42,305 nt of DNA from a virus. Positions 3,548 to 7,569 of the stretch are shown piece by piece. The position numbers and the translations under genes were made by a program. How positions within the stretch are numbered: position 1 is the stretch's first letter; each line of letters starts with the position of its first letter. The notes below the pieces were generated by a model. The model was not told the DNA's origin. It searched no databases and saw only the letters and a list, made by a program, of their open reading frames with translations. The DNA lies in the UHGV virus genome UHGV-0118819. The stretch is one strand, 5' to 3'.

Positions 3548-3992
3548 GCTGGTTATTTCTGCTTTCCTCCTGACTTTATTCGGTTCTCTCGTCTGGTCAG
3601 CTAATCATTACCACAATAAAGCCATTGAATACAAAAAACAGCGCGACGAAAACGCTATGGCATTAGATTCGGCTATGGCGACGATCTCTGATATGCAGAA
3701 GCGTCAACGTGACGTAGCAGAACTCGATGCCAGATATACAAAGGAGCTTGCTGATGCTAACGCGACTATCGAAAGCCTCCGTGCTGATGTTTCTGCTGGT
3801 CGTAAGCGCCTGCAAGTCGCCGCCACCTGTGCAAAGTCAACGACCGGAGCCAGCAGCATGGGCGATGGAGAAAGCCCAGGACTTACAGCAGATGCTGAAC
3901 TCAATTATTACCGTCTCCGAAGTGGAATCGACAAGATAACCGCGCAGGTTAACTACCTGCAGGAGTACATCAGGACTCAGTGCCTGAAATAA
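3531..3992 (+). CDS. Rz: i-spanin Rz
   Basis: 153 aa from ATG 3531 ([14 protein letters not shown]... N-terminal TM, coiled-coil body); overlaps R end as in lambda. Confidence 0.9.
   Translation: MKLRYKLVISAFLLTLFGSLVWSANHYHNKAIEYKKQRDENAMALDSAMATISDMQKRQRDVAELDARYTKELADANATIESLRADVSAGRKRLQVAATCAKSTTGASSMGDGESPGLTADAELNYYRLRSGIDKITAQVNYLQEYIRTQCLK
3754..3939 (+). CDS. Rz1: o-spanin Rz1 (lipoprotein, embedded in Rz in +1 frame)
   Basis: AGGAG RBS 7 nt upstream of ATG 3754; MLTRLSKASVLMFLLVVSAC lipobox then proline-rich segment. Confidence 0.75.
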   Translation: MLTRLSKASVLMFLLVVSACKSPPPVQSQRPEPAAWAMEKAQDLQQMLNSIITVSEVESTR

Positions 3993-4024
3993 TTTTTTTG
4001 CAAATCACAAAGTCCATTTAATGA

Positions 4025-4049
4025 GCCTCGCGATGCGGGGCTTTTTTAT
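4025..4049 (+). terminator. intrinsic terminator after lysis cassette
   Basis: GCCTCGC-GAT-GCGGGGC stem followed by TTTTTTAT. Confidence 0.6.
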
Positions 4050-4190
4050 GTCCGCAGTAAACGCGCATCTCACGCGCATATTAACGAGAGCCTTTCAGTA
4101 AGCGAGCCTGAGAAATGCCGTTATAGGTGGCGACCTCTCTCGGGCGGCTTTTCTGTGAGACAGGCTCACTTTCTAAAAGGTAAAGACGCT

Positions 4191-4709
4191 ATGAATCATC
4201 AATTGGCTAATCTCGATTTCCGGGACATGGTGGTTGTTTCTGGTGATCGCGTGATCACAACCTCCCGCAAGGTAGCAGCTTACTTCGACAAGCAGCATCA
4301 CCACATCATTCAGAAAATCGAAAAGCTAGACTGTTCGGATGAATTTCTAACCAGCAACTTTTCGCGGGTTACCTATGAACACAAGGGTAATCAGTATGTT
4401 GAATATGAAATTTCCAAAGACGGCGCGATGTACATCATCATGTCGTTTACCGGCAAAAAAGCTGCCGCCATCAAAGAGGCGTTTATCAAAGCATTTAATT
4501 GGATGCGTGACAGGCTGATGGAGTTGGCTCACTCATACCAAAGAGAGCACAACGAGTTAATGCTGGAGTTCATGAAGGAAAAGGATGTTGCCAGTATGTC
4601 AGGACGCTTGCTGAACCGCTGGGGCAGGATCAAAAAACCGCAACTCATAGCAAGAATCGAAAGGCTTGAGCAGCAGGCGCAAATATCGATCCCCGGACTG
4701 CCAAAGTGA
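4191..4709 (+). CDS. Rha-family phage regulatory protein
   Basis: MNHQLANLDFRDMVVVSGDRVITTSRKVAAYFDKQHHHIIQKIEKL... typical Rha N-terminal domain; alternative GTG start at 4155. Confidence 0.75.
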   Translation: MNHQLANLDFRDMVVVSGDRVITTSRKVAAYFDKQHHHIIQKIEKLDCSDEFLTSNFSRVTYEHKGNQYVEYEISKDGAMYIIMSFTGKKAAAIKEAFIKAFNWMRDRLMELAHSYQREHNELMLEFMKEKDVASMSGRLLNRWGRIKKPQLIARIERLEQQAQISIPGLPK

Positions 4710-4717
4710 CCATTCCA

Positions 4718-4739
4718 AAGCCCATCTACTGGTGGGCTT
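4718..4739 (+). promoter_or_regulatory. perfect 7-bp stem hairpin after Rha stop (no U-tract)
   Basis: AAGCCCA-tctactgg-TGGGCTT. Confidence 0.35.
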
Positions 4740-5131
4740 GATAATGAAACCGTGATTTACATCCCTCACAATCCAGGTATGTAAAAGCTGGATCATGCGA
4801 GAACGGATTTAACTAAATCTGTGCGCCACCAGTTAACGGCAGTACCACGAAACAACCCAAGCCAGTAAGTGGGGAAATAACACTGGCAGCCACTGAAAGA
4901 TGAACCTCCTGCATTATGGCAAAAAAGATTCTTTGTGGTGGCGGACTGATGGAAAGACATCGGTTATTGCAGAGACCATTCAATGAGTGGTCTCGACAAT
5001 GGCTTATACCCTACACGGGATAACTTAACTGATATCCCCACAAGCGGATAAAGAGGTCCCTCAATGTCAGGAATCTACTTTTAGTCCTAGTAATGATGAA
5101 CTAGATATCAGTTGAGTCGCTTGGGTGGTGA

Positions 5132-5368
5132 TTACGATTCTGCTTCAAACTCAGAAATTAGTTGATGAACACGTTCAGTATATGATGGGTTAGAACCTAG
5201 AAACTCTTCCACTGTCTGAATGGTTTCATCACCCTCCCATTCAAAATGGCTCACAGGTGACGAATGACCAGCCCTGACTTGGTAGGAGCCATTGTCCAAT
5301 TTGTCCAGGAATATATAAGTTTCATTATCATGACCTGTATTTCGGTAAAAAATTTGCTTTGAGTTCAT
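5132..5368 (-). CDS. hypothetical acidic protein (78 aa), AT-rich, divergent from terS
   Basis: ORF with GAGGA RBS; only 24 bp from terS start on opposite strand; looks lower in GC than neighbours. Confidence 0.6.
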   Translation of the reverse strand: MNSKQIFYRNTGHDNETYIFLDKLDNGSYQVRAGHSSPVSHFEWEGDETIQTVEEFLGSNPSYTERVHQLISEFEAES

Positions 5369-5392
5369 TAAAGAAATCCTCTAGAGAAAACT

Positions 5393-5944
5393 ATGGCACT
5401 CACCGACAAACAAGAGATGTTCTGTCGCGAGTACCTCATCGATTTAAACGCCACACAAGCGGCTATTCGGGCGGGGTACAGCGCAAAGACAGCTAACCGT
5501 ACCGCATCCGAAAACCTGTCAAAACCTGACATACAATTCAGAATCGCCGAACTGAAAGCGCAACGCAATGATCTTGTTGGTATTAATGCAGAATATGTAC
5601 TTAATCGCCTTATTGAAATCGACCAGATGGATGTGCTCGACATTCTCCTGCAAAACGGTGAGCTAAAGCCCATTAAAGACTGGCCTAAGGTATGGCGCAC
5701 AACGCTATCAGGAATGGATGTCGTGGAGATAGTATCCGCAGATAGCGCCGCACTTCTGAAGAAAATCAAATGGCCTGATAAGGTTAAAAACCTTGAGTTG
5801 CTCGGGCGTCATGTTTCTGTTCAGGCGTTTAAAGACAATGTCAAAAATGAAGTGACTGGTGCTGACGGAGGACCAGTCAGAACAGAAATTACCAACTTAA
5901 CGCCGGAGCAGGCTGCAGAAGCGTATAAAAAAATGATGGGCTAA
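5393..5944 (+). CDS. terminase small subunit
   Basis: [30 protein letters not shown]... characteristic small-terminase N-terminal DNA-binding motif. Confidence 0.85.
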
Positions 5945-5946
5945 GT

Positions 5947-7569
5947 ATGCCGTTACCATTTCCCTTCGATTTTAAACATCCTGATTACCAGATGGTTTTT
6001 GAATGGCGGATGGAACGCTTACAGCGCATTCGCCAGAACCCTGAAATATTGCCAGCACTAAAACAGTTTTACCGGACCAACCCGGCTCAGTTCATCATCG
6101 ACTGGGGCATGACAACGGACCCGCGTAATATTGATTATGGCCTGCCGGTGACCATTCCGTTTTTACTCTTCCCTAAGCAGGAGGAGTGGATCCACTGGAT
6201 TATGGAACGCTGGGGTAATCGGGAGAATGGTATTACCGAAAAATCCCGTGAAATGGGGCTCAGTTGGACCGCGATCGGACTGGCCTGCTCGCTTTGTCTC
6301 TTCAACAAAGAAATGGTTATCGGTTTCGGCTCCCGTAAAGAGGAATACGTCGACAGCACCGGTGACCCGAAAGCATTGTTCTGGAAGGCGCGCAAGTTCG
6401 TGGAAACACTACCTGTAGAGTTTCGCGGTTCGTGGAGCGAGAAGAAGCACGCGCCATATATGCGTGTTGAGTTTCCTGAAACTGGTGCCGTTATCAAAGG
6501 CGAGGCTGGCGATAATATTGGTCGTGGTGACCGTACCACGCTTTATCTGGTTGATGAGGCTGCATTCCTTCAGCGTCCTCTGCTGATTGATGCGGCGTTG
6601 TCACAAACGACGCGTTGCCGTATTGACCTGAGTTCAGTTAACGGCATGGCGAACCCGTTCGCTCAGAAGCGTCATGGCGGGAAGATACCGGTATTCACAT
6701 TCCACTGGCGGGATGATCCTCGCAAGGATGAAGAGTGGTATCGCAGGGAATGCGAGAAAATCGATAATCCGGTGGTGGTGGCACAGGAACTTGACCTGAA
6801 CTACAGCGCATCAGCGGAAGGCGTCCTGATTCCATCCGAATGGGTACAGGCTGCCGTTGATGCACATATCAAACTGGGGATCCAGCCAACAGGCAAACGA
6901 CTTGGCGCGATGGATGTCGCCGACGAAGGCAGGGACAAAAATGCCTTTTCCACCCGTCATGGCTTCCTCCTGGAGAATGTGCGGGAATGGTCCGGTGTGG
7001 GCAGCGACATTTATCAGTCCGTCGAGAAGGTCTTCGGTTTTTGCGAACAGGACAACCTCGAAGAGTTTCGCTTTGATGAGGACGGGCTGGGCGCTGGCGT
7101 TCGCGGCGATGCACGCGCTATCAACGAACAGCGTAACGCTGCGCGTCGACCGTCAATACTCGCTACACCGTTTCGCGGTAGCGGCGCGGTGTTTGATCCG
7201 GACGACGAAGCGGTGCGCGGTGACAACGGGCAAGCCGCACGTCTGAACAAGGACTTCTTCGCTAACGCCAAAGCCCAGAGCTGGTGGCGGTTACGTAAAC
7301 TTTTTCAGAATACCTGGCGCGCCGTGGTTGAAGGTATGGCTTACAACCCGGACGAAATCATCTCAATCAGCAGTGGCATGGCACTCAAAGATAAACTCAT
7401 CATCGAGCTTTCGCAGCCGACCTATTCCATTAATGGTGTGGGAAAAATCGTTATTGATAAACAGCCTGATGGAACCCGGTCGCCAAACCTTGCCGACTCG
7501 GTGATGATCAGCTACGCGCCAATGAATTCAGCCCTGAACATCTGGGAGCTGCTAGGGAGACAGGCCTGA
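5947..7569 (+). CDS. terminase large subunit
   Basis: 540-aa ORF directly after terS and before portal; acidic motifs (LYLVDEAAF) consistent with ATPase/nuclease. Confidence 0.8.

Follow-up and report, generated by a model that had tools for sequence, protein, structure and literature searches.

Introduction

In lambdoid phages, accessory genes of several sorts, among them regulators and genes for defence and anti-defence, are frequent where the lysis module meets the packaging module. Two described systems come closest to the locus reported here. In phage P22, a small-RNA-sequencing study of infection (Naaz et al. 2026, Noncoding RNA 12:21, PMC13397905) lists ten phage RNAs, among which P22G (P22 nucleotides (nt) 21,873-22,076, + strand, 204 nt) is described as 'downstream of ORF201, no known function', ORF standing for open reading frame. 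P22G was found at 374-488 reads per million in infected samples only, and it was also detected in vesicles; a further RNA of the same list, P22F (Table 2 of that paper), is likewise without known function. In phage phi80, the late operon that depends on Q is interrupted by a gene on the opposite strand, taiEcA, whose expression is seen in the lysogen and falls once Q is made (PMC11364771).

Here we describe positions 4155-5392 of a 42,305-nt stretch of DNA (UHGV virus genome UHGV-0118819, below 'the window'), a lambdoid prophage of Escherichia coli in which this interval forms the lysis-packaging junction. The interval holds a gene for a Rha-family regulator, a non-coding stretch with a near-invariant core homologous to P22G, and a reverse gene for an acidic protein of 78 residues that abuts terS, the gene for the small terminase subunit. 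On balance, we read it as probably two accessory cargo slots in the lambdoid late operon, split by conserved, transcribed and structured segments of the late messenger RNA (mRNA). Its parts are already of known kinds, namely a Rha slot, moron-like cargo and a recently listed RNA. New with respect to the single published report that we found are how widely the P22G-type core occurs, how little it varies and the placing of mosaic junctions at its ends; the fixed pairing of the orphan 78-residue gene with terS genes of the Terminase_2 family is also new. The core itself is notable: its ~125 nt hardly differ among P22, Sf6, HK620, HK022 and over 1000 prophages of E. coli, it is transcribed (in P22), and it carries no Rfam family or annotation. 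Should it turn out to direct processing or to regulate as an RNA, late-gene control in model phages would include a widespread element that has so far gone unnoticed. The conserved sequences on either side of the slots also give a simple route to cargo genes in thousands of prophages.

Results

Conserved flanks surround an exchangeable gene

Window positions 4000-5500, used as the query, matched 226 phage records; of 5426 complete E. coli genomes, 2640 gave a match, and only five had the whole arrangement. E. coli BY63, Ecol_224 and GZ2408P are examples of lysogens with this arrangement, and E. coli HS is one that has the core. The matches consist of two pieces, 4000-4190 and 4710-5038, which lie on either side of the Rha gene and are 90-99% identical in ~200 phages and many E. 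coli genomes. Between these same flanks, other phages hold other genes, encoding KilA-N proteins (HK620, mEp234), a GIY-YIG nuclease (HK106), HNH proteins or an anti-CRISPR protein, and for this reason we regard Rha as the cargo of a swappable slot (slot 1). Upstream of the interval lie a Q-type antiterminator region, transfer RNA (tRNA) genes, a lambda-family holin, a lysozyme and Rz with embedded Rz1; downstream lie the Terminase_2 small subunit, a 540-residue large terminase and a DUF1073 portal. The initial annotation of this DNA had proposed an accessory mosaic region reaching from the lysis cassette to the terminase, which agrees with the change of gene between conserved flanks. The items that it listed (a terminator after Rz, the Rha gene, a hairpin, an ORF-poor stretch and a 78-residue ORF) were all found in place.

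A near-invariant core corresponds to the P22 RNA P22G

The 422 base pairs (bp) between the Rha and 78-residue genes (4710-5131) form a chain made of hairpin A, an optional block A', the core, and hairpin C with a tail that reaches 5038 (Table 1). ORFs in this stretch are solely of 55-65 residues, all on the minus strand and none with a coding signature. The initial annotation had noted some 400 bp without a convincing ORF, which stands; what it missed is that this stretch is the most conserved feature of the locus and corresponds to a P22 small RNA. P22G aligns at 4816-4979 with 151 of 164 positions identical, and the two share, besides sequence, the sense strand of the late operon and a position directly 3' of a rha-type slot gene. 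Blocks A and A', present here, are missing from P22, where the core directly follows the rha stop codon and the loop of the first hairpin is longer by 2 inserted nt. The P22G RNA was measured in P22 infection, and its homologue here is identified by sequence. A literature text search with the core sequence returned PMC13397905 as its sole match. STnc6030, from the BTP1 transcriptome paper, was considered as a homologue of the core and rejected, as it is located elsewhere, near the tailspike.

Outside the 24-nt anchor used for the search, column identity in the core is 98-100% across 114 unique viral copies. The core is also shared by phages P22, Sf6, HK620 and HK022. An independent BLAST search with 4830-4965 found the core in 1120 of the 5426 E. 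coli genomes, about one fifth, and 1096 of 1126 records were at least 95% identical. What variation exists is patchy: 4836-4858 and 4902-4917 are variable, the latter containing an anti-Shine-Dalgarno-like CCUCC, and 4859-4901 and 4918-4961 are almost frozen. Neither the Prokaryotic Genome Annotation Pipeline (PGAP) nor the phage depositors placed any annotation over the core in the E. coli genomes and phage records examined. Rfam gave no match in 4710-5131, at gathering thresholds or at E values up to 5, and its gathering score was reached in the whole window by two tRNA matches only. A scan of species-representative genomes returned just the E. coli representative and metagenome-assembled bins, adding no taxonomic breadth. 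An exact 21-nt core word occurs in bins labelled Cellvibrionaceae, Nanosynbacter, Bacillota and Collinsella (L140-L146), most likely owing to contaminating enterobacterial phage contigs.

The blocks around the core appear to be structured. The whole stretch 4710-5131 folds with z = -5.1 on the + strand, and the perfect 7-bp stem of hairpin A, already noted in the initial annotation, extends to 9 bp via U-G and C-G pairs (-15.1 kcal/mol, z = -4.15, with an equal fold in none of 200 shuffles). Hairpin A is kept behind differing upstream genes, and its natural variants C4723U and C4726U stay paired as G-U wobbles on the + strand only. Block A' is found in part of the family only, about half of the sampled copies having 8 nt instead (gap fraction 0.51 in the 114 unique copies). 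Hairpin C is stronger still (-23.7 kcal/mol, z = -6.32) and its pairs survive variation: column pair 152/168 is GU in 37 sequences, AU in 30 and GC in one, and column pair 156/164 is UG in 64 and UA in four. We tried both hairpins as canonical intrinsic terminators and rejected them because neither stem is followed by a T-run; the only + strand site nearby in the terminator scan was that at 4023-4050. Across 68 unique sequences, 22 of 102 paired columns vary versus 39 of 93 unpaired ones, 15 of 25 variant states in stems still pair on the + strand versus 7 of 25 when read as the minus strand, and G-U is the commonest state in 6 of 51 pairs on the + strand. These data are consistent with a conserved structure but do not prove one.

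Mosaic junctions lie at the ends of the blocks. Three alternative left ends meet the core at ~4836, and past 4961 the sequence continues in at least three alternative ways, each into a different inserted gene (for example Sf6 gene 66); in Sf6-type genomes, entire genes are inserted within the stretch. Most relatives cease to match beyond 5038, which is query position 1039. A + strand DUF2560 gene comes next in 67 of 92 loci, a count taken from naive ORF clustering 3' of the core, which gave mostly spurious antisense ORFs and was used solely for the DUF2560 and terS-type counts. In this prophage, a vestigial start and the reverse 78-residue gene take the place of the DUF2560 gene; in strain HZ13, a 41-residue ORF starts at the ATG homologous to 5064. 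An inverted repeat (I11), in which 5104-5117 is complementary to 5023-5036 (14 nt, 93%), spans the breakpoint at 5038 and joins the conserved block to the 78-residue module, and it may be a trace of recombination. The minus-strand word at 4826-4833, ACTGGTGG, coincides with the left mosaic junction of the core and differs from Chi (GCTGGTGG) by one mismatch; this near-Chi word is limited to the 'CACCAGTT' allele.

Slot 1 holds a Rha gene behind a conserved leader

The slot 1 protein matches the Rha profiles PF09669 (Phage_pRha; E 1e-23, 84.1 bits, cut-off 29.9), PF10549 (ORF11CD3; E 9e-24, 83.9 bits, cut-off 25), TIGR02681 (76 bits, cut-off 45.95) and PHROG 518 (E 2e-79), so that the Pfam and TIGR02681 scores exceed their curated cut-offs and the initial assignment is upheld. 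It shares the Phage_pRha plus ORF11CD3 architecture with the Rha proteins of phi80 and P22 (PF09669), and has 172 residues versus 201 for P22 ORF201. As in this prophage, rha of phi80 lies in the late operon, 3' of the lysis genes. PGAP calls an identical 172-residue ORF in E. coli strain BY63. In that strain (locus L004), the insertion sequence IS100 (istA/istB) lies at 1113-2914, between Rz and the Rha leader, in a prophage that is otherwise 99.5% identical.

The conserved left flank of slot 1 contains, within the Q-antiterminated late operon, the terminator that the initial annotation had placed after Rz; the stem and T-run were found, and the homologous site of HK106 carries a rho-independent terminator annotation. 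In the leader that follows, a long imperfect stem pairs 4091-4110 with 4161-4180 (inverted repeat I1, 20 nt, 85% complementary) and takes in the rha Shine-Dalgarno region (fold energy -38.9 kcal/mol, z = -2.2). P22F aligns to this leader at 4109-4179 with 52 of 69 positions identical. A consensus site for integration host factor was absent from the leader, its single match in the whole window being at 27326.

Slot 2 holds an orphan gene paired with Terminase_2 terS

The reverse gene between the trailer and terS encodes an acidic protein of 9 kDa (isoelectric point 4.59, 14 acidic versus 5 basic residues). Just 24 bp separate its ATG (5368) from that of terS (5393), and the Shine-Dalgarno sequence AGAGGA (5382-5377) lies 8 nt upstream of the former. 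The initial description of this ORF as AT-rich is right for the ORF itself (guanine-cytosine (GC) content 39.7% versus 48.9% for the window), whereas the regional GC dip over 5000-5400 is mild, at 0.40-0.44. Its family is tiny, with 13 clusters in 5.8 billion proteins and 16 representatives in 1.84 billion; homologues are 60-81% identical with their length kept, and the ratio of nonsynonymous to synonymous substitution rates is 0.05 between two members. Judged from these comparisons of sequences, the ORF is a real, rare and low-GC cargo gene under purifying selection. The module occurs in 12 of the 5426 E. coli genomes, versus 1120 for the adjacent core, and the gene was found in none of 50,697 deposited phage genomes. 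The protein had no match in Pfam, PHROG, NCBIfam or PADLOC, no sequence relative in the PDB, and no similarity to DUF6953 or the 90-residue proteins found in the same slot elsewhere. An AlphaFold2 model (mean predicted local distance difference test score, pLDDT, 72) shows four strands and a C-terminal helix pair, for which fold searches returned generic sheet-plus-helix matches only; PUR/Whirly-like and polo-box-like folds likewise have four antiparallel strands followed by a C-terminal helix, and the length is similar to that of Borrelia Pur-alpha.

In all retrieved contexts with a visible neighbour (L130-L137), the 78-residue gene diverges from a Terminase_2 terS at a distance of 24-28 bp, and this terS leads into three different sets of large terminase (TerL) and portal genes. 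Related terS genes were also found without the 78-residue gene, which is therefore accessory to terS and dispensable. The fixed place of the family beside one type of terS makes a packaging-related accessory role testable. Other prophages carry, at the same place, small reverse genes for DUF6953, for DUF2158/YodC or for a 90-residue orphan. In three of the loci (L130-L132), the copies of the 78-residue gene are cut by an insertion sequence.

With only 24 bp upstream of the ORF, any promoter must overlap terS, as the initial annotation had argued. The sole candidate promoter element of the reverse gene is a weak extended -10, TGcCATAGT (5398-5390), over the terS start codon, which emerged from the comparison of four loci and was missed by the consensus scan. 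On neither strand did that scan detect a sigma-70 promoter-like site between 3900 and 5700, nor did it detect a terminator-like site on the minus strand 3' of the gene; a relaxed scan of the four homologous loci gave no promoter for it. Lambdoid morons, in the Juhala/Hendrix definition, are present in some relatives and absent from others, deviate in GC content, are inserted between two genes of an operon, and have a promoter and a terminator of their own. The 78-residue gene shows the presence and absence among syntenic relatives, the deviating GC content and the insertion between two operon genes, whereas no promoter or terminator was found for it.

An accessory gene on the strand opposite to the late operon, in the lysis-packaging interval, is also known from lambda (bor) and from phi80, where taiEcA makes a 'noncontiguous operon' (PMC11364771). 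TaiEcA, of 26 kDa, serves in defence and is partnered by an anti-defence gene, whereas the 78-residue protein is of 9 kDa and no partner gene was detected. The initial annotation had cited both bor and lom of lambda as morons near this junction. This is correct for bor; lom does not lie at this junction.

Table 1. Features of the lysis-packaging junction, in window coordinates.
Feature	Position	Strand	Description
Intrinsic terminator after Rz/Rz1	4023..4050	+	Stem 4023-4043, 9 bp with 6 G-C pairs, then TTTTTAT
Slot-gene leader	4085..4190	+	Conserved; homologue of the P22 small non-coding RNA P22F
Rha-family regulator gene, 172 residues	4191..4709	+	Slot 1 cargo; Pfam, PHROG and TIGRFAM profiles
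Hairpin A	4718..4739	+	Directly 3' of the slot-gene stop codon; perfect 7-bp stem
Block A'	4750..4826	+	Two small hairpins, fold z = -2.3
Core, ~125 nt	~4836..4961	+	Near-invariant, non-coding; homologue of the P22 small non-coding RNA P22G
Hairpin C	4962..5005	+	Strong stem-loop, 8 outer and 10 inner pairs
Tail of conserved block	5006..5038	+	In most relatives the leader of the DUF2560 gene (hkbM of HK620, P22 ORF80)
Junction remnant	5039..5131	.	Vestigial ribosome-binding site and 6-codon ORF, ATG 5064 to TAG 5084
78-residue acidic protein gene	5132..5368	-	Slot 2 cargo; antisense to the late operon
Divergent spacer and terS start codon	5369..5398	-	24-bp spacer; candidate -10 element
terS	5393..5944	+	Terminase_2 family, PF03592, E 7e-40

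Discussion

A proposed role for the conserved blocks

We propose that slot 1 is bracketed by two RNA segments, a P22F-like leader stem over the Shine-Dalgarno region and a trailer (hairpin A, the P22G-like core and hairpin C) that would be read on the + strand within the Q-antiterminated late transcript. The most likely role of hairpins A and C would be to impede RNA decay and to mark points of processing, and the RNA between and around them would build up as a stable, discrete species of ~200 nt, as P22G does in P22. Such a role would explain the stability of both P22G and P22F. The common blocks would at the same time serve as homology anchors for the swapping of cargo, which is suggested by their presence in all these phages and by mosaic junctions placed exactly at block ends. 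In slot 2, the 78-residue gene would be expressed independently in the lysogen and damped by head-on late transcription after induction; by analogy with phi80, we infer that it follows the logic of taiEcA.

A further proposal is tentative, and we consider it rather doubtful: the core would be a functional RNA or DNA site that is recognised sequence-specifically, and, separately, the 78-residue protein may act on the TerS of the Terminase_2 family. The factor binding the core would be of phage or host origin and would serve either expression of the late operon or an interaction between phage and host or between phages. The 78-residue protein made in the lysogen could, for example, impair packaging by related incoming phages.

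Several points weigh against the main interpretation, that of two slots and structured late-mRNA segments. The great uniformity of the family leaves almost no covariation to be seen: 99.7% of cells are paired, but a double change was found in one pair only, which 43 of 500 shuffles matched. Taken by itself, the core shows no unusual fold stability (z = -0.43 for the + strand, -1.46 for the minus strand), and secondary structure therefore leaves the near-freezing of ~125 nt, loops included, unexplained. The viral copies were gathered with an exact 24-nt anchor (4918-4941), and invariance within it is uninformative. P22G, whose expression is taken from the literature, comes from one small-RNA-sequencing study and could be a decay fragment. 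Finally, with neither a promoter nor a terminator found for the 78-residue gene, its expression in the lysogen is conjecture.

Other explanations for the conserved stretch

Conservation of this kind could arise from coding or from packaging. Two small-protein candidates present themselves in the core, a + strand ORF at 4900-4986 (MNLLHYGKKDSLWWRTDGKTS..., 21-28 residues depending on the mosaic variant) and a minus-strand hydrophobic peptide that starts at GTG 4893 behind a perfect GGAGG Shine-Dalgarno sequence at 4909-4905 (MAASVISPLTGLGCF[V/A]VLP..., 19-26 residues). Several variants are synonymous in the latter frame, and possible stops for such ORFs coincide with both mosaic junctions (a TAA directly after 4961 in variants of the Sf6 type, and a TAA in the left-end variants with 'TTACGG'). 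The minus-strand peptide was our first impression and was dropped after six-frame statistics. Among 26 distinct natural substitutions in 4838-4894, the best frame had 9 synonymous ones versus 29% expected (p = 0.34), and none of the six frames was enriched (p > 0.3). Natural variation, moreover, removes each of the starts: ATG 4900 becomes ATA in two variants, T4917A (five variants) turns ATG 4916 into AAG and creates a stop in the other + frame, and GTG 4893 becomes GTA. The minus-strand frame is further broken by insertions of 1-2 nt in P22 and four other variants, no minus-strand promoter was found, and nothing is annotated there by PGAP or depositors. From these changes we conclude that the core has no conserved ORF, and we hold an unannotated small protein, which could at most be a dispensable micro-peptide, to be very unlikely. 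We give even less credence, indeed almost none, to a cos or pac recognition site in 4710-5131, which the initial annotation had suggested. The stretch does lie just 5' of terS, where some phages keep such sites, but the same sequence, 90-99% identical, is found in the cos phages HK106, HK022 and mEp234 (where it lies ~1 kb before the genome end) and in the pac phages P22, Sf6 and HK620. It neighbours unrelated terminases (HK97-type for cos; P22-type, Sf6-type and Terminase_2 for pac) and does not co-vary with their type, and because of this indifference it is not the packaging site; the whole genes that Sf6-type genomes carry inside it point the same way.

Two other explanations keep the stretch non-coding and are harder to set aside, if still improbable. 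In one, the core would be a trans-acting phage small RNA cut from the late transcript, acting as a sponge or regulator of host or phage mRNAs through, for example, the single-stranded ACCUCCU and the A-rich stretch at 4903-4927. The discrete P22G species in infection and in vesicles (PMC13397905) would suit such an RNA, as would conservation beyond structural need, which fits a sequence-specific partner, and a predicted internal loop contains the anti-Shine-Dalgarno-like CCUCC (4905-4909), beside AAAAAAG. Variation in the core, however, peaks in two parts, and this very patch belongs to one of them (12 of 16 positions varying in 4902-4917). Against 57 translation-initiation regions of the window, the best pairing reached -38.8 kcal/mol versus a mean of -39.0 for shuffled cores; the window holds no second or complementary copy of the core elsewhere, and the core has neither a promoter of its own nor a terminator-type 3' end. 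A trans-acting RNA thus seems quite unlikely. Alternatively, the blocks would be functionless 'boundary' or linker DNA kept uniform by recombination among co-resident lambdoid prophages. The mosaic junctions at block ends agree with this, as do the independent assortment of the blocks (A alone in SPN3UB, S135 and CobraSix; C alone in mEp460, 2B8 and Ss-VASD), the annotated boundary sequences near this place in Sf6 and the lack of significant covariation. Uniform homogenisation would nevertheless sit poorly with the abrupt shift of nucleotide diversity inside the element (pi = 0.096 at 4830-4859 versus 0.009 at 4860-4889 in the same 25 sequences), which argues for site-specific constraint; paired positions also vary about half as often as unpaired ones, and the z-scores of hairpins A and C are strong. 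We therefore hold functionless linker DNA to be unlikely, and retain the two slots split by conserved late-mRNA segments as the working interpretation.

Additional observations in the window

In P22, pac lies inside gene 3, and SPP1-type (Terminase_2) pac sites span the 5' end of terS and the region upstream. Within terS of this prophage, motifs containing AATCG are repeated over 5433-5622: 5542-5560 recurs directly at 5603-5621 (79% identity, spaced by 61 nt), and 5439-5448 has an inverted counterpart at 5613-5622. These repeats could be related to an SPP1-type pac. We would expect the pac site of this prophage within the 5' end of terS or shortly before it, outside 4710-5131. The first ~100 nt of terS are near identical in four loci, and the 78-residue genes of these loci differ by up to 30% at the DNA level.

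The 540-residue large terminase (5947-7569) had no Pfam or NCBIfam match and is called 'hypothetical' by PGAP in one genome and 'TerL protein' in another. Its region is closest, among deposited phages, to vB_EcoM-606R2 and relatives, at 97% identity and from 5762 onward only.

Upstream, the expected Rz1 (o-spanin) gene is a +1-frame ORF at 3727-3939 that is embedded in Rz and carries a lipobox-like LLVVSAC. Genes for tRNA-Asn (GTT) and tRNA-Thr (TGT) occupy 2366-2521, 3' of the Q region and 5' of the holin, and the phage L genome paper reports the same tRNA-Asn/tRNA-Thr pair at the same position in Sf6.

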